From a phage, in NCBI GenBank assembly GCA_012628545.1, contig GCA_012628545.1_3035.1: 64,000 nucleotides of DNA. The stretch is one strand, 5' to 3'. Shown piece by piece: positions 4,488-57,545 of the stretch (its first letter is position 1; the number at the start of each line of letters is the position of its first letter). The notes beneath the pieces were generated by a model, which worked only from the letters and a program-made list of their open reading frames with translations, did not search any database and was not told where the DNA came from. Position numbers and translations under genes: made by a program.

Positions 4488-6752
4488 TCATAATTTACAG
4501 GATGAACAATCTTCAGCTTTTGGAGTTTCTATTTCATAATCATCAGTACCAGAACCATCACGGGTATTATGATAATAGAAATTTTTTCCGCCAAAATACC
4601 AAAAATACAAAAGGTCATCAATCATTATTGACATTGGAACCTTTCCTTTTGGAAAAATCTGTGGGTCATAATATGTATTCGCCGAAGCTGATTGACAAAC
4701 CCATTTCAGCATAATAGCTACCTGCGTAAGATAAGGTTTATTACCTTTCTTAGCTAATTTCCATGTATAATCATAGAGGTCTATGTTATGCTCAATATTG
4801 GGCACGACTTGATTAAAGGAGCCCTCTTTTGATTCTTTAACAGAGACTGGTCCACGTGGAGGCTCGATACCGTTTGTACTGTTAGAAACTTGGGAAGATG
4901 ACTCACATGGCATAAGTGCTGATAATGTGCTATTACGGATGCCAAAGAGCTTAAGGTCTTCCCGCAGCGACGACCAGTCACAAACGTATTTTGGAGCTGC
5001 GATTTGGTCAATCTTTTTATTGTACCAGTCGATAGGTAATTCGCCTCGAGACCAACGAGTGTCTGAATAATATTCGCAAGGTCCTTTTTCTTTGGCGAGC
5101 TTAATGGATGCTTTAATGAGTCCATACTGTAATCTCTCAAATAGTTCATGTGTTAAATCGTTAGCATCTTCATAAGAAGCAAAGTTACTTGCCAGCCAAG
5201 CTGCATAGTTAGTAACACCTACACCGAGGTTACGACGCTTTTTAGCTTTTTCTGCTTCAGGAACTGGATATCCTTGGTAATCCAAAAGATTATCAAGAGC
5301 ACGAACTTGAACTTCTGCTAATTCATTAATTTTATCTTGGTCTTGCCAATCGAAGTTATCCAGCACAAATGCAGATAACGTGCACAATCCAATTTCAGCA
5401 TCGGGGCTATTCACATCATTTGTTGGAATAGCAATTTCACAGCACAAGTTACTCTGACGAATAGGTGCCTTTTCACGAATAAATGGAGTATAGTTATTCG
5501 TATTATCAATGAACTGTACATAAATCCTTGCTGTTCCTGAGCGTTCAGTCATGAGCAATTCAAATAGTTCACGGGCTTTAATACGCTTTTTACGAATATT
5601 AGGGTCTTTTTCTGCTGCTTCGTATAATTCACGGAAACGGTCTTGGTCTTTAAAATAAGAATAATAAAGCTCGCCACCCATTTCATGCGGACTGAACAAA
5701 GTAATGTAATCGTTCTTTCCGAATCGTTCCATCATCAAATCATTCAGCTGAACACCATAATCCATATGACGAATGCGGTTTTCTTCTACGCCTTTGTTAT
5801 TTTTCAAAACGAGAAGATTTTCAACTTCCAAATGCCAAATAGGATAATAAGCAGTAGCAGCACCGCCACGAATTCCACCCTGTGAGCATGATTTAACTGC
5901 AGTCTGAAAATGTTTCCAAAAAGGAATAACACCGGTATGGCGTACTTCACCCATGCCAATCTTAGAACCTTCGGCACGAATCATACCAACGTTAATACCA
6001 ATTCCAGCGCGTTTAGAGATATATTCAACAATTGAAGCGGAAGCCTTATTGATAGACTTCAGCGAATCACCTGCCTCAATAACAACACATGAACTAAACT
6101 GTCGAGTCGGAGTACGACAACCAGCCATAATAGGAGTTGGCAGTGAAATCTGTCGAGTAGATACTGCTTCATAAAAACGGATAACATGTTTTAATCTATC
6201 AACAGGTTCATCTTGATGCAATGCCATTCCAATAGTCATAAATGCAAACTGTGGAGTTTCATAAATTTGACCAGTGGTTTTATCTTTAACTAGATATTTT
6301 TCTTTTAATTGCATCGCCCCGGAATAAGTAAATTCCATATCCCGCTCGTGCTTAATTTTTGATTCTAAAAATGTAATTTCTTCTGCTGAATATTTTGACA
6401 ATAATTCAGGGTCATATTTACCTGCATTTACACAATAAGAAATATGGTCAATAAATGAACGCGGTTCATACTGCCCATAAACATGCTTACGAAGAGCAAA
6501 CATTAAACAACGTGCAGCTACATATTGGTAATCAGGCTCTTCAACCGAAATAGAATTCGCAGCGGCCTTAATGACAATAGTCTGAATATCATCAGTGGTC
6601 ATTCCATCACGGAGATATGATTTAATATTTTCATATAATTCATAAGGATCTACAGATGTTCCTTCAGCTGCCCAAGATAAAACTTTAATAATTTTTTGCG
6701 GGTCAAAGCTCTGAGAAACACCACTACTTTTGATAACATTAATTAATTGCAT
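4488..6752 (-). CDS. nrdA: ribonucleotide reductase large (alpha) subunit
   Basis: 754 aa, N-terminal ATP-cone region, conserved catalytic cysteines (NLCCEI context); same length as T4 NrdA. Confidence 0.95.
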   Translation of the reverse strand: MQLINVIKSSGVSQSFDPQKIIKVLSWAAEGTSVDPYELYENIKSYLRDGMTTDDIQTIVIKAAANSISVEEPDYQYVAARCLMFALRKHVYGQYEPRSFIDHISYCVNAGKYDPELLSKYSAEEITFLESKIKHERDMEFTYSGAMQLKEKYLVKDKTTGQIYETPQFAFMTIGMALHQDEPVDRLKHVIRFYEAVSTRQISLPTPIMAGCRTPTRQFSSCVVIEAGDSLKSINKASASIVEYISKRAGIGINVGMIRAEGSKIGMGEVRHTGVIPFWKHFQTAVKSCSQGGIRGGAATAYYPIWHLEVENLLVLKNNKGVEENRIRHMDYGVQLNDLMMERFGKNDYITLFSPHEMGGELYYSYFKDQDRFRELYEAAEKDPNIRKKRIKARELFELLMTERSGTARIYVQFIDNTNNYTPFIREKAPIRQSNLCCEIAIPTNDVNSPDAEIGLCTLSAFVLDNFDWQDQDKINELAEVQVRALDNLLDYQGYPVPEAEKAKKRRNLGVGVTNYAAWLASNFASYEDANDLTHELFERLQYGLIKASIKLAKEKGPCEYYSDTRWSRGELPIDWYNKKIDQIAAPKYVCDWSSLREDLKLFGIRNSTLSALMPCESSSQVSNSTNGIEPPRGPVSVKESKEGSFNQVVPNIEHNIDLYDYTWKLAKKGNKPYLTQVAIMLKWVCQSASANTYYDPQIFPKGKVPMSIMIDDLLYFWYFGGKNFYYHNTRDGSGTDDYEIETPKAEDCSSCKL

Positions 6753-26688: not shown

Positions 26689-27324
26689 TCACAGTTCAGA
26701 TGCTACAGTGATTACAGCTTCAATGTTTTCTGCTGAACGTTTAATGTCAAGATACACATTACCGTTTTTAGCGATTTTACATGACATTCCGATATCAGTA
26801 AATTTCTGAATATGATGTTCCATCATTTTGTATCCAAAAATTCGCATGTTTCCATTGTTGTTAATTTCAAAATTACGAATTCCGTGAGTGCGTTTTTCTA
26901 AAATAGCGAGATAGTTACTGCGATAAGTTTCGACCTTTTTAAGAACAAATCCATTTTCATCTAAAAGTTTTAACATGAAGTCTTTATCTTCTTCCATATC
27001 AGAAGTAATCTCACGAGATTTACGAGTTGCTCGTTTTTTCAGCAGTTCCGGAGCATTTTCCTGTGCGTATAAAGTTGCTGCGTTTGAAATAATATCCTGA
27101 GCTTCACCAGTAATGATTAATCCATCACCAGATTTCTCTACCAGGCCCTTTTTAATCAATACACCAATATTACTATTAACTACTGCGTTACCTAAATCTG
27201 GATGCACCTCACGAACTTCTGCAGCTGTAATGAAATCTTTCTTAGCAATAGTAATTAAAATCGCAGCAGTTTTTTCATTCAGAACATCGTTAGAAGCTTT
27301 GATGATGTAAGTTACTTTAGACAT
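26689..27324 (-). CDS. motA: MotA middle-transcription activator
   Basis: 211 aa MSKVTYIIKASNDVLNEKTAAILITIAKKDFITAAEVREV...; early promoter cassette immediately upstream. Confidence 0.9.
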   Translation of the reverse strand: MSKVTYIIKASNDVLNEKTAAILITIAKKDFITAAEVREVHPDLGNAVVNSNIGVLIKKGLVEKSGDGLIITGEAQDIISNAATLYAQENAPELLKKRATRKSREITSDMEEDKDFMLKLLDENGFVLKKVETYRSNYLAILEKRTHGIRNFEINNNGNMRIFGYKMMEHHIQKFTDIGMSCKIAKNGNVYLDIKRSAENIEAVITVASEL

Positions 27325-27365
27325 TTTCTAATCTCCGTAATTCTGTATCAGTAGTTGATAGTTGT

Positions 27366-27395
27366 ATAGTACCACAGTATGCTTTGGTTGTAAAC
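27366..27395 (-). promoter_or_regulatory. early promoter cassette upstream of motA
   Basis: GTTTAC-N18-TGGTACTAT; conserved flanking GTAGTTGATAGTTGTATAGTACCAC on plus strand. Confidence 0.65.
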
Positions 27396-27428
27396 CGTTT
27401 TGTGAAAAAATTTTTGAAATAAAAAAAA

Positions 27429-27448
27429 GGGAGAGCCTCGGCTCTCCC
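27429..27448 (-). terminator. intrinsic terminator downstream of gene 52 operon
   Basis: GGGAGAGCC-TC-GGCTCTCCC hairpin followed on the minus strand by TTTTTTTT. Confidence 0.7.
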
Positions 27449-27453
27449 TAAAA

Positions 27454-27603
27454 TTACTGCATGACTGTGATAACTGTCATGATAACACGTTGAATTCCGA
27501 ACGCAAGAAGACCTCCTGCTACGGCTGGAACAACACCTAAACCCGCCAGTAAAATGCTACCAGATACTAATGCAGCGCTTGTAATACCAATGAATGGACT
27601 CAT
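27454..27603 (-). CDS. small hydrophobic membrane peptide, 49 aa
   Basis: MSPFIGITSAALVSGSILLAGLGVVPAVAGGLLAFGIQRVIMTVITVMQ; ATG overlaps the TGA of gene 52 (ATGA); followed by a strong hairpin terminator. Confidence 0.4.
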   Translation of the reverse strand: MSPFIGITSAALVSGSILLAGLGVVPAVAGGLLAFGIQRVIMTVITVMQ

Positions 27604-28928
27604 TTGATTTCCTCTAAATCTTTGGTGTATTCGGTAACTACATCAGTAGTTTTCCAATATTCGTTTTCTTCTTTTTTAGCTTTAGCTTCTTCAGCAAGTT
27701 TCTTTGCTTCATCGGAAGTCATATGAAAAATATTCATTCCAACTAGTTTATCAACATAAGAAGAATACATATCGATTTTCGAAAGTTCTTCGGTCAGTTC
27801 TTTACGAGTTTTACCCTGTACAACAATTTCACCTGAAATTACTTTCTTAATGAAATGTGCCTTGGCAAAGGCTAAACGAAAAGCTGACTCAGTTTCTTTG
27901 ATTTTGTTATCAATTCGTTTTTGGACATAAGTTTTACGAACTTCAACAAAGTCTTTGATTAAATCAACTACGTTATCGTAAACTTGTAGTTTTCCTTTCT
28001 CATTAATAACCGTAATATTCTGAGAACGACGCTCAATCAACCCGAAGTCTTTCATAATTTTTGCATGGCGTTCTTCTTCGTTATCGCTCAAAGAATATTC
28101 TTTGCGGAATTTAACTTTGAATCCAAAACCGTGCTCACCACAAGCATCATCCCATGTAATGAAGCCTTTATCTTCAAGTGGGTCTAAGATTTTACTCACA
28201 TAAGTTTCACGATCATACTTATACGGAATCTCAGTGATATGCATTTGAGTTCGTGAAGTAAACTTGTACGTTCCACGAATTTCATATTGACCGTCAATCT
28301 CAACGACTTCACCACGAAATTCTGGGAATTCTACCTTCGGTTTAGTTACTTTCTTTCCTTGAAGAGCTTGCAGTACAGCTTTCTTGACAGAAGAAACACT
28401 ATGAGGAAGAATGTAAGTTGCATAACCAGTTGCAATACCGGAAACACCATTAAGAAGAACAGTAGGAATAATAGGCAAATAGAAAGCAGGCGGAATGTGT
28501 TCTTTATCTTGATGTACCGGAGCATATTCAGTATCTTTATATACGTTATAGAAATTTTTACTTACACGAGCAAAAATATAACGACTTGCTGCTGCTTTTT
28601 GGACGGTACGAGAACCAAAGTTTCCTTGACCATCTAACAGAGGAAAGTTATTATTCCAAGTGTTAGCCATCAAAGCACCTGCATCTTGTGCAGAGTTTTC
28701 ACCATGATGATATCCAAGGTCCGCTACACCACCTGCAATAGAAGCGAGTTTATGAAATTTATCTTTATTTCCTCGTGCCAAATCAAGAGCTCGAGCAATA
28801 ACAAATCGTTGAACTGGCTTAAATCCGTCAATCATATTTGGGATAGCACGATTTTCAACCGTGTACATAGCATAAGCCAGTGCTTCATTATCAATGATAC
28901 TTTTTAAATCGCGATTATTCAGTTGCAT
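27600..28928 (-). CDS. 52: DNA topoisomerase II medium subunit gp52 (GyrA-like)
   Basis: 442 aa; region DGFKPVQRFVI...; active-site tyrosine-containing GyrA-homologous region; length equals T4 gp52. Confidence 0.9.
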   Translation of the reverse strand: MQLNNRDLKSIIDNEALAYAMYTVENRAIPNMIDGFKPVQRFVIARALDLARGNKDKFHKLASIAGGVADLGYHHGENSAQDAGALMANTWNNNFPLLDGQGNFGSRTVQKAAASRYIFARVSKNFYNVYKDTEYAPVHQDKEHIPPAFYLPIIPTVLLNGVSGIATGYATYILPHSVSSVKKAVLQALQGKKVTKPKVEFPEFRGEVVEIDGQYEIRGTYKFTSRTQMHITEIPYKYDRETYVSKILDPLEDKGFITWDDACGEHGFGFKVKFRKEYSLSDNEEERHAKIMKDFGLIERRSQNITVINEKGKLQVYDNVVDLIKDFVEVRKTYVQKRIDNKIKETESAFRLAFAKAHFIKKVISGEIVVQGKTRKELTEELSKIDMYSSYVDKLVGMNIFHMTSDEAKKLAEEAKAKKEENEYWKTTDVVTEYTKDLEEIK

Positions 28929-28932
28929 AAAT

Positions 28933-29073
28933 TTACCATACTAGTGAATGTAGTGCCATAATAACATCAGAAATGAAAAGCACGACTTGAATTAATCCGA
29001 ACATTATTCCGTAATATAACGCTACCAATAAAGTAGCAAGGGCTAGTGAATAGCCCAAGATTTTCTTAATCAT
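28933..29073 (-). CDS. small hydrophobic membrane peptide, 46 aa
   Basis: Hand-translated: MIKKILGYSLALATLLVALYYGIMFGLIQVVLFISDVIMALHSLVW; below the ORF-track size cutoff. Confidence 0.35.
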   Translation of the reverse strand: MIKKILGYSLALATLLVALYYGIMFGLIQVVLFISDVIMALHSLVW

Positions 29074-29224
29074 TAGTAGATAACAACACAAATGTTAAAT
29101 ATGCACACATACCCTGGGCTAAAGCTTGTGAAAACACACTGCTGGCATCAATACAGATAGTTAAAACACATGCTACTATCCAACAAATAAATGAAATAAC
29201 TCCTAATAATTTTGCGATATTCAT
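29066..29224 (-). CDS. ac: small membrane protein, 52 aa (Ac-like, acridine sensitivity)
   Basis: Hand-translated: MNIAKLLGVISFICWIVACVLTICIDASSVFSQALAQGMCAYLTFVLLSTND; position between 52 and stp; assignment by size and position only. Confidence 0.45.
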   Translation of the reverse strand: MNIAKLLGVISFICWIVACVLTICIDASSVFSQALAQGMCAYLTFVLLSTND

Positions 29225-29231
29225 ATTTTCC

Positions 29232-29312
29232 TCACTGGCGTCCGAAGACGCCTTTAGTTTTAAGATTGTTACGATAAAACTGCATCACATGTTCGTTGTG
29301 GAAATTACTCAT
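29232..29312 (-). CDS. stp: Stp peptide (26 aa; modulator of host restriction / PrrC anticodon nuclease)
   Basis: Hand-translated [26 protein letters not shown], matching the remembered T4 Stp sequence; start overlaps ndd stop. Confidence 0.8.
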
Positions 29313-29755
29313 TAATATGCCTGCAAAACGAATTTAAAGTTATCAGCCAACATACGGTTCATTTCTTCAAGTGTTTGATACTCAGAATGATGATTACGAG
29401 TAAACGCCAAAGCTAACTGACCTTTACCAAATCCTGTCGTCAGAGGTTTCATCTTAGAAGCAGGCAGATAAAATACTGTGTATGGAACATTGTTATTTGC
29501 AATAGTACGCGCAAGTTGAGACCGGCGTTGACGAATATGACTTAGAACTGCGCTGAATCCTTGCTTAGAACGCTGATTACCCACATAAAATCGTGCGGAT
29601 ACGCATGAACCATCGAATTCATTTACTAAAAAGTAAAATCCAGGTTTAGATAAAATATCTTTATGCGGAGTTCCCAAAAACCACTCACCACCCTTGATTG
29701 TACCAATAACAGTAGCGCCTGCATTATTCAGATCAGTAACAGTCATATATTTCAT
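29312..29755 (-). CDS. ndd: Ndd nucleoid disruption protein
   Basis: [33 protein letters not shown]...; start taken at internal Met of the track ORF (147 aa). Confidence 0.8.
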
Positions 29756-29813
29756 GTTAATTTCCTCTAAATTATTTTCTACTCCAAGGCCGCATGAATA
29801 CGCGGCCATTAAA

Positions 29814-30029
29814 TTAATCGTCGCAGTCGACGCTCAATTCCCAGAATTCTTCTACGGTGTAAGTTTCAGTATCATTTTCAATACAGAAACGTTCATTACT
29901 ATTATTTGCTAAAGTAGCATTAACTGTCGGTTTCTCGCTAGTGCTCTTAAGAGGTGAAATACGAATTAACTGATCACCGTTATCTAAACAGAAAATTTCA
30001 CCAACTTTTACATCTTTAAAACTTTTCAT
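29814..30029 (-). CDS. hypothetical protein, 71 aa
   Basis: ORF upstream of ndd (ndd.x position). Confidence 0.4.
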
Positions 30030-30144
30030 AATTCACCTCAAGGAGTATAAAATCCAAATGCAGTTGTTGACCATCCCATCCAATATGGGAAATTTGCACC
30101 AATGTAAAACATAAGAATATAAAACCAACCGCTCAACAAATTCA

Positions 30145-30363
30145 TCATTTTACACCATTCCAAATTGTTTCAACTACGGATTTTAAACCATTTTGATGAA
30201 TGTCCATTCCGACTACCGCCATCAAATAGATTCCAACTACAACTGAACCTAAGGCAAAAATCAGCATGAAAATGAATAAAGCCGGAAAAATATTATCGAA
30301 AAACCATTCAATAAATGTAAAAGCATTGCGTTTACGCTTCATATTTTCCTCACATAAATCCAA
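30145..30363 (-). CDS. small membrane protein, 72 aa
   Basis: Two predicted TM helices (IFPALFIFMLIFALGSVVVGIYLMAVVG). Confidence 0.4.
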   Translation of the reverse strand: MDLCEENMKRKRNAFTFIEWFFDNIFPALFIFMLIFALGSVVVGIYLMAVVGMDIHQNGLKSVVETIWNGVK

Positions 30364-30463
30364 AGTAAACGTTTAATACATCAATCATTAAAACGATTGG
30401 GAATATACTCAAAACTATTAGTATTATAACTACATTCCATATAGCTTTAATAATCTTTTTCAT
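30350..30463 (-). CDS. small hydrophobic peptide, about 37 aa
   Basis: Track ORF 30350..30598 reads through a promoter cassette; true start likely MKKIIKAIWNVVIILIVLSIFPIVLMIDVLNVYFGFM. Confidence 0.35.
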   Translation of the reverse strand: MKKIIKAIWNVVIILIVLSIFPIVLMIDVLNVYFGFM

Positions 30464-30491
30464 TTTCTGTTCCTCCGTAGTTGATAGGGTA

Positions 30492-30521
30492 ATAGTACCA
30501 CGGAAGAACAGTCTTGTAAAC
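30492..30521 (-). promoter_or_regulatory. early promoter cassette
   Basis: GTTTAC-N18-TACTAT family member. Confidence 0.55.
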
Positions 30522-30706
30522 AACTTTTTTAAAAATATTCGTAATAAATGTGAATACCAACTACTACCGCTGAAACCTGTGCAACCCACCATGCACAAGC
30601 AATAAGTACAGAATTTAAAATTTTCATAATAACCTCATTACAAAAGTAAATGTTAAACAAATTACTGGAATACTAATTAACCAAACAAAACACCACCATA
30701 GTGAAC

Positions 30707-30970
30707 TCATAGCTCAATCTCAATGATTTCAAGATTATTTTCTTTAATAGCTTTCTTTAAATCATCGTAAATAAGAACTTCCCAAGAATTGTTTAAATCA
30801 CCATTCAACAAACGCTCTTGTTGCAATTTATCAGTAAGATACGGTTGATCTGATTCATATTTAGACAATCCCAATGAAATAAATGATGTTGCATCGTCAA
30901 TTTCAGAATATTGTACATGAACAAATTCACCTGTGATTTTATGTTTAACATAAAAGAATTTAAATTTCAT
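30707..30970 (-). CDS. hypothetical protein, 87 aa
   Basis: ORF directly downstream of an early promoter cassette (30999..31028). Confidence 0.45.
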   Translation of the reverse strand: MKFKFFYVKHKITGEFVHVQYSEIDDATSFISLGLSKYESDQPYLTDKLQQERLLNGDLNNSWEVLIYDDLKKAIKENNLEIIEIEL

Positions 30971-30998
30971 TTTCCGCTCCTCCGTAGTTGATAGTTGT

Positions 30999-31028
30999 AT
31001 AGTACCACGGTCCTTGTGGTATGTAAAC
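30999..31028 (-). promoter_or_regulatory. early promoter cassette
   Basis: GTTTAC-N18-TACTAT family member with A/T-rich upstream tract. Confidence 0.6.
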
Positions 31029-31046
31029 TGTTTTGTGAAAAAATTT

Positions 31047-31604
31047 TTAAATGGAAAGATACCATCCGTTGTAGTTGCTTTTTCTTACAACCTTACGAAG
31101 GTCTTCTCTGTCACCGATGAACTTCGGAGTGTACTGGATGACACCTGGATGAATTTCTTTAGTGTTGAATATAATTATACAGTCAGCGACTTGATGATTT
31201 AGAATGGGCCCTAGATTTATTCCAGAACCATATGGATACTCTCCGCTGCATCCTGTTGTTACCGAAATCCAACGTGAGTCAGTTTGATGTGTCTTAACTT
31301 CTACGCGAAGCCCACAGTATTTTGGATGCGCCAATACATCCCATGCATACGTGTACGGATCATCGACATCTTCTTGACCTTTATTAACATACCCGCTTAA
31401 CCAATCTGCTACAAAAAACTCTGCGTACACAGCGATACGACATCTTTCGATAACTTCTGCCTTATCCTGGTTCGGGTTTTGTTTTAAAGAGTATCTTGCT
31501 GTATCAGCAATTTTGACCTTCATTTCATTGGTTAAATCGCTGTTCGATAGAGTAAATGTCGGAATCTGAAATAGTCTCTGCAAACCCGGATTCGTTTTCT
31601 GCAT
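31047..31604 (-). CDS. denB: endonuclease IV
   Basis: 185 aa, same length and position (ndd cluster to rIIB) as T4 DenB. Confidence 0.75.
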   Translation of the reverse strand: MQKTNPGLQRLFQIPTFTLSNSDLTNEMKVKIADTARYSLKQNPNQDKAEVIERCRIAVYAEFFVADWLSGYVNKGQEDVDDPYTYAWDVLAHPKYCGLRVEVKTHQTDSRWISVTTGCSGEYPYGSGINLGPILNHQVADCIIIFNTKEIHPGVIQYTPKFIGDREDLRKVVRKSNYNGWYLSI

Positions 31605-56438: not shown

Positions 56439-56591
56439 TTAAACCTCAATTGATGCATTCATATTTAAATTGTAACAGTAATAAACCCCACCCTATGATA
56501 AGAGTTGGAATCATAGCAGGAACTGTTACGCTATAGTATATACTTATTATAACCATCAAGATTAAAAGCAACACTGTTATAATTTTGCTTT

Positions 56592-56843
56592 TCATTCTTT
56601 CTCTCTGATGATAATTACCTGATTTGGCTGTGCAGACTTTTTAGTTTCACCAGCAATTGACCAAATAAGTGTAATAAACCAACCAATAATTGACCAGTTA
56701 AACAGTAAAGATGTGAAAAAGATTCCTACTGTCGATTTTGACCCACGCATCAAAGCAATAAACCATGGAAGCATGTATATAATAATAGCCAACACACCTG
56801 AAACTAAAACCATAAAAATTGAACCTGCTACTAAAGTTTCCAT
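56592..56843 (-). CDS. imm: Imm immunity (superinfection exclusion) membrane protein
   Basis: 83 aa with two TM helices; position between 43 and 42. Confidence 0.65.
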   Translation of the reverse strand: METLVAGSIFMVLVSGVLAIIIYMLPWFIALMRGSKSTVGIFFTSLLFNWSIIGWFITLIWSIAGETKKSAQPNQVIIIREKE

Positions 56844-56850
56844 ATTTTCC

Positions 56851-57231
56851 TCACTTAGTCAAATTTTTTACGCATGAATTATAAGAATTCACTACATACT
56901 CCATCGGAGCATTTTTACCAGTACGCCATTGGTAATTATTGGCCCAATTAGCCCAAAGCTCGGCGCAGTAGTTTTCAATTTTTTCTTCGCGTGTAATTAC
57001 ATCCGAATTACGATATGCTTGAGCAGATTCATCTGGACGAATAGCTTCGTCAAAATTCGCCTGCATTTGTTCGACTGTTTGCTTTGGAGCTTCTTTATAA
57101 CACTTGACATTAGGATTATAAAATTTGCTTGAACAGTTTACAATTTTTCCTGCATCAGACTGATTTACTACCGGTCCTTGAGCTACACAACCAGTAAGAC
57201 CTAATGCAATAACCAAAATAGCGATTTTCAT
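56851..57231 (-). CDS. predicted lipoprotein, 126 aa
   Basis: Signal peptide plus lipobox LTGC (MKIAILVIALGLTGCVAQG). Confidence 0.5.
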   Translation of the reverse strand: MKIAILVIALGLTGCVAQGPVVNQSDAGKIVNCSSKFYNPNVKCYKEAPKQTVEQMQANFDEAIRPDESAQAYRNSDVITREEKIENYCAELWANWANNYQWRTGKNAPMEYVVNSYNSCVKNLTK

Positions 57232-57241
57232 AATAATTTCC

Positions 57242-57478
57242 TCAAATGCAAGTAGTAATTACTCCAGTAGTGCTTATGCAGGTATTACCCATTTGCACAC
57301 CTAAAGATCCATTTGTATTCACATGAAGATTATCATCAATTTTAACTGATATTTTACCATTAGTGTGAATAACAGTGCTAGATTCAATCACAGGTTGAGT
57401 ATCATTTTCAACACTAACAAATGGAACTGCTGCTAATGCAACTAAACAAACTGCTAAGCATCCCATAACAATTTTCAT
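57242..57478 (-). CDS. secreted/membrane protein, about 78 aa
   Basis: Track ORF includes translated promoter (FFHGTIQLS artefact); start at MKIVMGCLAVCLVALAAVPFVSVE (signal peptide). Confidence 0.45.
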   Translation of the reverse strand: MKIVMGCLAVCLVALAAVPFVSVENDTQPVIESSTVIHTNGKISVKIDDNLHVNTNGSLGVQMGNTCISTTGVITTCI

Positions 57479-57515
57479 TTTATTCTCCAAATCCGTATCA
57501 GTAGTTGATAGTTGT

Positions 57516-57545
57516 ATAGTACCATGGAAGAACATTCTTGTAAAC
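57516..57545 (-). promoter_or_regulatory. early promoter cassette
   Basis: GTTTAC-N18-TACTAT; near-identical to the motA-upstream copy. Confidence 0.6.

Follow-up and report, generated by a model that had tools for sequence, protein, structure and literature searches.

A cluster of small hydrophobic peptide genes between motA and denB of a T4-like phage: candidate early accessory membrane proteins

We analysed a window of 64,000 nucleotides (nt) of phage DNA (GenBank assembly GCA_012628545.1, contig GCA_012628545.1_3035.1) and describe here the interval between motA and denB, in which the list of open reading frames (ORFs) and their translations at positions 27454-30710 revealed eight ORFs on the minus strand encoding near-wholly hydrophobic peptides of 28-65 amino acids (aa), namely motA.1, 52.1, ac, ndd.2, a fused ndd.2a/ndd.3 gene (hereafter ndd.2a-3), ndd.4, ndd.5 and ndd.6 (Table 1). 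A dense cluster of small hydrophobic peptide genes had been pointed out here in an earlier note on this DNA and was confirmed. When positions 27000-31200 were used as a megablast query, 479 phage records covered at least 80% of it, the best matches being Tequatrovirus genomes with 96-97.5% identity, and tblastn found Ndd to be 100% identical to Ndd of the E. coli O157 phage AR1; judged by these matches, the phage is a Tequatrovirus (T4-like). According to the annotations of the T4 reference and of phage TadeuszReichstein, the minus-strand order is denB, (orf87), ndd.6, ndd.5, ndd.4, ndd.3/ndd.2a, ndd.2, ndd.1, ndd, stp, ac, 52.1, 52, motA.1 and motA, the genes of four soluble products (Stp, Ndd, Ndd.1 and orf87) lying among those of the hydrophobic peptides.

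Every ORF of positions 27454-30710 corresponds to an annotated T4 gene, and most of these genes are labelled as predicted membrane, outer-membrane or periplasmic proteins (NC_000866.4). The cluster is the already known "predicted membrane protein" cluster of T4, the genes of which are non-essential and accessory, and the Ac preprint (bioRxiv 10.1101/2025.06.30.662393) credits Miller et al. (2003) with listing it as one of three predicted-membrane-protein clusters in T4. The description of these peptides as an under-characterised class in the earlier note is thus fair for their function, but not for their existence.

Table 1. Features of the motA-denB interval and of the imm region, by position in the window.
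Feature	Position	Strand	Description
Intrinsic terminator	27428..27449	-	after motA.1; 9-bp stem followed by a T run; strong
motA.1	27454..27603	-	49 aa, Gly/Ala-rich, hydrophobic; phrog_3487 (E=2e-31)
gene 52	27600..28928	-	DNA topoisomerase II medium subunit, 442 aa; outside the peptide class, peptide genes on both sides
52.1	28933..29073	-	46 aa, hydrophobic, DUF7396; Pfam PF24129 (E=1e-22); phrog_3595
ac (acridine sensitivity)	29066..29224	-	52 aa, two predicted hydrophobic helices; T4 annotation; phrog_2501
stp	29232..29312	-	26 aa, basic, soluble; Pfam "anticodon nuclease activator"; grand average of hydropathy (GRAVY) -1.03
ndd	29312..29755	-	nucleoid disruption protein, 147 aa, soluble; T4 annotation
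ndd.1	29814..30029	-	71 aa, acidic, soluble; phrog_2183; GRAVY -0.54
ndd.2	30038..30148	-	36 aa, aromatic-rich, no charged residues, marginal transmembrane (TM) character; phrog_4135
ndd.2a-3 (fused ndd.2a/ndd.3)	30145..30342	-	65 aa, DUF7248; PF23906 (E=5e-20)
ndd.4	30350..30463	-	37 aa, predicted single-TM, begins MKKIIKAIWN; GGAGG Shine-Dalgarno sequence (SD); phrog_3098; first gene past the early-type promoter
Early-type promoter	30492..30520	-	TTTACA-17-TACTAT plus upstream TG
ndd.5	30529..30627	-	32 aa, hydrophobic; phrog_5011
ndd.6	30624..30710	-	28 aa, hydrophobic; phrog_8851
orf87	30707..30970	-	87 aa, soluble; phrog_2390; 8-codon remnant in T4 (window-T4 alignment)
49-aa ORF	56446..56595	-	two predicted helices, hydrophobic, between imm and gene 42; start overlaps the imm stop (ATGA); phrog_3610
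imm	56592..56843	-	superinfection immunity membrane protein, 83 aa; Pfam PF14373 (E=5.5e-16); T4 annotation

The T4 block from motA.1 to ndd.6 (163.7-167.0 kb) and the window are alike in gene order, strand and gene lengths, with near-identical sequences, and the differences between them bear on the T4 annotation. The 65-aa ndd.2a-3 gene is intact in the window, where T4 has ndd.3 and ndd.2a, and also in all other phages examined, whereas T4 carries a 1-nt deletion just past codon 2 of this gene (ATGAA-CGT versus ATGAAGCGT; positions 4933-5129 of the retrieved T4 locus, L002), leading to an out-of-frame N-terminus annotated as ndd.3 (26 aa) and the rest, read from an internal Met, annotated as ndd.2a (40 aa). 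Hence, T4 ndd.3 and ndd.2a are two halves of one gene, which is a new, minor point. The window also keeps the 87-aa ORF that is deleted in T4, where an in-frame deletion has left an 8-codon ORF, MKIAEIEL (L002, about 5498-5530), which retains the first two and the last six codons behind the original SD and still overlaps the ndd.6 ATG, suggesting that translation of ndd.6 depends on coupling. Finally, T4 ndd.4 is annotated as a 42-aa product from an ATG that lies within a GGAGGA SD, while the window has ACG at that codon (30463-30480), making the 37-aa product starting with MKKII the likely one; the window gene thus probably starts 5 codons after the T4-annotated start, which in T4 itself has probably been placed 5 codons too early.

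Six of the gene starts listed in the earlier note were right. Its start at 30363 is a TTG that would give 72 aa, and the conserved start of ndd.2a-3 is the ATG at 30342, backed by homologues and a GAGG SD, while its single start at about 30690 dissolved into two genes starting at 30710 and 30627. All ten peptides searched match PHROG families with E-values between 1e-17 and 1e-38. The window Ac aligns over residues 1-51 with positions 1-50 of the 50-position phrog_2501 profile (E=3.7e-25), a full-length match, and close relatives annotate its product as "acridine resistance protein". In Pfam, 52.1 scores 80.1 bits against PF24129 (gathering cut-off 27; positions 1-46 of 46), Stp 75.3 bits against PF08133 (Nuclease_act; gathering cut-off 25, E=2e-21) and ndd.2a-3 71.5 bits against PF23906 (gathering cut-off 27). 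An alignment of 19 homologues of ndd.2a-3 shows a basic N-terminus, a single long hydrophobic helix and, at the C-terminus, the conserved motif GLKSVVExIWNG, and the AlphaFold2 model consists of a single helix over residues 3-64 (62 residues; mean predicted local distance difference test score 80), being uninformative for function. All database homologues of ndd.2a-3 carry PF23906 and derive from T4-like phage contigs; no bacterial homologues were returned by a word-indexed search, which yielded eight T4-like phage proteins and has low sensitivity for short hydrophobic queries. One further arrangement was observed in a single phage, Shigella phage Sf25, the 62-aa gp120 of which combines an N-terminal half from ndd.4 with a C-terminal half from ndd.2a-3, carries both PF26889 and PF23906, and represents a natural fusion of two adjacent peptide genes.

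Hydrophobicity was scored as the best 19-residue mean on the Kyte-Doolittle scale and as the summed free energy (dG) of the best 19-residue window according to Hessa. The Kyte-Doolittle mean was 2.2-3.1 for all peptides but ndd.2 (1.2). Since 13% of random ATG ORFs of 25-80 aa on the plus strand of the window and 23% of those on the minus strand passed the Kyte-Doolittle cut-off, this scale is insufficient alone, and the Hessa dG, the SD and conservation were used instead. A Hessa dG of 0 or below was obtained for six of the nine peptides (ac, 52.1, ndd.2a-3, ndd.4, ndd.6 and the 49-aa ORF next to imm), with motA.1 and ndd.5 at about +1; on the non-coding strand, this threshold was reached by just 3 of 163 ORFs, and Hessa dG thus discriminates better than Kyte-Doolittle. 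When hydrophobicity was combined with a 4-nt SD, 5 of 299 random ORFs remained, four of them within the cluster. The TM-helix character put forward in the earlier note is accordingly supported for most of the peptides by the two scales, but is marginal for ndd.2, and Stp, Ndd, Ndd.1 and orf87 are not hydrophobic. The membrane location of the peptides is a prediction from these scores, and for ndd.2a-3 and ndd.4 an N-in/C-out topology is predicted.

The genes tile the minus strand without gaps or competing frames, with distances of -8 to +8 nt within each operon. ATGA overlaps occur at five junctions (orf87/ndd.6, ndd.6/ndd.5, ndd.2a-3/ndd.2, gene 52/motA.1 and imm/49-aa ORF), so that the stop/start overlaps described previously are real, but none of this type joins a peptide gene to Stp or Ndd: the ndd/stp junction is a TAATG overlap, and stp/ac, like ndd.4/ndd.2a-3, has the sequence TGAGGAAAATATG with the stop codon lying within the SD. 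Genes ac and 52.1 overlap by 8 nt, and 52.1 ends 4 nt ahead of the gene 52 start. A GAGG-type SD precedes most starts, including that of motA.1 (GAGG 7 nt upstream of the ATG, which itself overlaps the gene 52 stop); 52.1, stp, ndd.2 and ndd.6 have a weak SD or none and are placed on stop/start overlaps. Three near-identical early-type promoters on the minus strand (31027-30999, 30520-30492 and 27394-27366) precede orf87, ndd.4 and motA, respectively, and together with the terminator after motA.1 they delimit the transcription units. The three promoter regions are near-identical across about 45 nt, each consisting of GTTTACA, 17 nt, TGGTACTAT and a common CTATCAACTAC leader.

For the conservation analysis, 36 loci around Ndd relatives were fetched, their ORFs were searched by phmmer, and presence was counted out of 39 loci. 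The most widespread peptide was 52.1 (32 loci), followed by ndd.4 (28), ndd.2a-3 (19), ndd.2 and ndd.6 (16 each), motA.1 (11), ac (10) and ndd.5 (8). The earlier note had made its proposal depend on conservation of the reading frames in related phages, and the frames do persist, including in phages with an Ndd just 55-64% identical to that of the window; motA.1 was present even at about 55% Ndd identity. The alignments revealed motifs that are kept in 52.1 (YYG..VLFISDVI..SLIW), in ndd.4 (KAIWN...IFP) and, in the 16 loci each, in ndd.2 (G.N.PYWLGW) and ndd.6 (WC.IW...IP.IC). Variable sites of the eight genes within Tequatrovirus were distributed as 18/9/48 over codon positions 1/2/3. The ratio of nonsynonymous to synonymous differences (pN/pS) was 0.4-0.6 for the peptides and similar for ndd (0.45), denB (0.46) and gene 52 (0.28), values that are rough because synonymous differences are almost saturated in pairs from different genera. 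Given the conserved frames, the third-position bias, the SD or translational coupling and the PHROG and Pfam families, the reading of the peptide ORFs as genuine protein-coding genes is well supported.

In T4, motA.1, 52.1, ac, stp and ndd.2-ndd.6 are classified as "early" transcripts (PMC9697503, Table S2). In the liquid chromatography-mass spectrometry (LC-MS) proteome of the same study, the protein class (Class_P) of motA.1, 52.1, ac, ndd.2-ndd.6 and stp is given as NA, i.e., undetected, while the study did detect Ndd and Ndd.1, both as early proteins, and a full-text literature search found no T4 ribosome-profiling data. The missing mass-spectrometric signal, and the frequency of hydrophobic chance ORFs in an AT-rich genome, would fit ORFs without a functional translated product, either chance ORFs or spacers that ribosomes merely pass. 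We regard this as very improbable, since frames, lengths and motifs are kept across genera with substitutions biased to third positions, strong SD sites are present, the tiling is gapless without competing frames, only 3 of the 163 non-coding-strand ORFs reach the Hessa threshold, and the genetics of Ac are well established. With regard to dispensability, a GT7-type deletion of 3,254 bp (165,257-168,510) was rebuilt in wild-type T4 and gave viable phage, although twelve genes, including ac through denB, were lost and both 52.1 and rIIB were truncated (PMC9712115); under laboratory conditions, the cluster is thus dispensable.

The gene maps of divergent loci showed that the same slots are occupied by other small hydrophobic families. 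The stp slot can hold a 57-61 aa two-helix family with the pattern GLPVT...ER...CGVxK (phrog_5941), and a 46-54 aa two-helix family with a G(A/V)WVPS turn (phrog_9347) is found beside or instead of ac, these families lying between ndd and gene 52 in loci L007, L009, L015, L020, L025, L029 and L037. The class of peptide is therefore conserved more than its members. Such turnover fits either an arms race or a ready emergence of hydrophobic ORFs in T-rich sequence, and the second possibility leads to the view that most of the peptides are by-products, young or evolving fast, of a plastic region in which T-rich DNA yields hydrophobic ORFs under weak selection and with little individual function. 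The patchy distribution between genera and the unrelated hydrophobic families in the stp, ac and post-52 slots speak for such an origin, as do the share of random window ORFs that pass the Kyte-Doolittle cut-off, the presence of T at 51% of second codon positions in the peptide genes, and the fact that the entire block can be deleted. However, the third-position bias and a pN/pS below 1 match those of bona fide neighbours, the motifs GLKSVVExIWNG, VLFISDVI and PYWLGW are shared across genera, the in-frame orf87 deletion of T4 has kept the coupling to ndd.6, and Ac has a clear phenotype, and we consider it unlikely that the peptides are by-products of this kind.

Outside the cluster, the 49-aa peptide gene next to imm was confirmed at 56595->56446. 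Homologues were found in 582 phage records (tblastn), and the ORF is intact at 49 aa in T4 and five other Tequatrovirus loci, although the corresponding site in T4 (NC_000866.4, 26220-26372) is an unannotated gap of 153 nt; its absence from the T4 RefSeq annotation is a new, minor point. No Pfam family, including Imm_superinfect (PF14373), matched the 49-aa ORF at E<=0.1, and some genome records call it "immunity protein". It is distinct from T4 imm.1, a 125-aa ORF upstream of imm. The imm.1 orthologue of the window (126 aa; 56851-57231, minus strand) has a MKIAILVIALGLTGC signal resembling that of lipoproteins; also upstream of imm, a 97-aa ORF (57242-57535, minus strand) has a hydrophobic segment near its N-terminus. 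A second small envelope-protein cluster of the window is thereby made up of imm.1, the 97-aa ORF, imm and the 49-aa ORF.

A pattern around gene 52 was noticed in the Ndd-anchored loci and then followed in 80 loci around gp52 relatives (junctions in L003-L119). In about 30 of the 38 loci with a gp52 at least 67% identical to that of the window, a hydrophobic ORF of 22-77 aa begins at the gene 52 stop, mostly by an ATGA overlap. These ORFs make up at least eight groups with no phmmer link between them, which are assigned to different PHROGs or lack one. A post-52 slot filled by at least eight unrelated families in enterobacterial T4-likes is a new, minor observation. It is suggestive of a link to gp52 and raises the alternative that the peptides serve the phage's own machinery, with 52.1 and the post-52 mini-ORF tethering or regulating topoisomerase II at the membrane and the 49-aa ORF acting as a partner subunit of Imm. 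In favour of this, 52.1 is the most widely conserved peptide and ends immediately ahead of gene 52, and imm and the 49-aa ORF share an ATGA overlap. On the other hand, the post-52 ORF is missing in several lineages (L014/16/17/21 and L029), a soluble gene takes its position in distant T4-likes (gp52 41-64% identical), gene 39 has no annotated small TM ORF next to it, and phage with a truncated 52.1 was viable (PMC9712115). Moreover, roughly two in three of the small genes in the region encode hydrophobic products, so that such a neighbour of gene 52 comes as no great surprise. We therefore find a role in phage machinery improbable. A narrower version, in which gene 52 is bracketed by co-translated membrane micro-proteins and the slot is selected for any TM peptide made together with gp52, e.g., as a tether or regulator of the topoisomerase and possibly linked to ac, is more doubtful still. 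In favour of the role in phage machinery, fractionation experiments of the 1970s reportedly placed gp39 and gp52 in membrane fractions; our literature search found nothing on membrane association of gp52.

Among the hydrophobic peptides, Ac is the one with a described phenotype: E. coli cells that express it become sensitive to acriflavine (3-log) and ampicillin, and T4 without ac plates on acriflavine (bioRxiv 10.1101/2025.06.30.662393). Raised drug sensitivity, the very early expression of many of the peptides, and a size and hydrophobicity like those of type I toxins and small holins could point to membrane-damaging effectors (type I toxin or holin/antiholin-like) that depolarise or permeabilise the inner membrane for host shut-off or lysis timing. 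During the whole of early infection, however, T4 depends on the membrane being energised. The window peptides gave no Pfam match to type I toxin, holin or bacteriocin families, and NCBIfam returned only far sub-threshold matches (bacteriocin 51 at 14.8 bits against a cut-off of 150; signal peptidase I at 14.1 bits against a cut-off of 277), the lone trace of a holin being a sub-threshold match (E=0.064) of a peptide from a related phage. In addition, the loss of viability of Ac-expressing cells was reported to be drug-dependent only (bioRxiv 10.1101/2025.06.30.662393). Membrane damage therefore appears a distinctly unlikely function, though more probable than the absence of any translated product.

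The reading that we favour, with a probability of roughly 55%, is that these genes encode early accessory small inner-membrane proteins, each of which binds a larger membrane complex, belonging either to the host or to an incoming phage, and alters it. The genes would be transcribed from sigma-70 early promoters in the first minutes of infection and translated by way of strong SD sites or stop/start coupling, and each would yield a one- or two-helix peptide of 28-65 aa inserted in the host inner membrane. The genes would be dispensable on laboratory E. coli and turn over rapidly between phage genera, and each peptide would bind a larger membrane complex (of the host or an incoming phage) and alter its activity, in the manner of host small membrane proteins. 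The characterised neighbours would be in line with this, Ac raising acridine and drug sensitivity, with a proposed block of AcrAB-TolC, and Imm stopping the entry of superinfecting phage DNA. Jointly, the peptides might accomplish an early takeover of the envelope, i.e., control of permeability and efflux, superinfection exclusion or neutralisation of membrane-anchored defences, in a manner depending on the host strain. For the uncharacterised peptides, the binding of membrane complexes is inferred by analogy.

Several points weigh against this interpretation. The Hessa dG of ndd.2 is +4.2, marking it as a marginal TM peptide, the conservation evidence for ndd.5 is weak, this gene occurring in Tequatrovirus loci only and with just 2 variable sites, and the pN/pS values are approximate, as stated above. 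Non-detection by LC-MS, although expected of peptides so tiny and hydrophobic, leaves their translation a prediction. The block of AcrAB-TolC by Ac is a hypothesis of a preprint, and the literature searched yielded a phenotype or partner for Ac alone among the hydrophobic peptides; among large T4 screens, the main texts on CRISPRi-ART, on HIDEN-SEQ and on anti-defence screening make no mention of their genes. Searches with the defence and anti-defence models of PADLOC returned no family for any of the ten peptides at E<=0.1. The suggestion of the earlier note that the peptides are modulators of host envelope or defence proteins is plausible by analogy with Ac and Imm, but finds no counterpart among these models.

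The gene inventory is little changed by these results, as the ORFs of positions 27454-30710 were already annotated in T4 and belong to PHROG or Pfam families. The relevance of the cluster is functional: T4, the best-studied of phages, has nine micro-proteins of membrane type, conserved and early, which are invisible to standard proteomics and, with genes of 90-200 nt, are probably too short for many transposon insertions. If even a few of them specifically inhibit membrane machines of the host, such as efflux pumps, DNA-uptake routes or membrane-anchored defences, they would make valuable tools and account for some of the host-range plasticity of T4. Small but concrete corrections to the T4 annotation also follow, namely the 49-aa ORF in the RefSeq record, ndd.3/ndd.2a as one gene and the probable start of ndd.4.

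Besides the T4 cluster itself, a close known system is T4 Ac, of which the window ac encodes an orthologue (52 versus 51 aa) differing only near the C-terminus, and a role of the window Ac in acridine sensitivity is suggested by the T4 precedent; the other peptides of the cluster have no sequence similarity to Ac. T4 Imm, to which the 49-aa ORF is translationally coupled, is likewise small, made early and located in the inner membrane. Type I toxins and small phage holins resemble the window peptides in size and hydrophobicity, but the peptides match none of their families, the genes are not arranged as a toxin paired with antisense RNA, and expression is early rather than at lysis. The host provides small inner-membrane regulators, with AcrZ acting on AcrB, MgrB on PhoQ and MgtS on MgtA. 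The window peptides are unrelated to these in sequence (no Pfam or NCBIfam hits), yet the host pairs offer the working model that has also been proposed for Ac, in which a one- or two-helix peptide of less than 60 aa binds a larger membrane protein.

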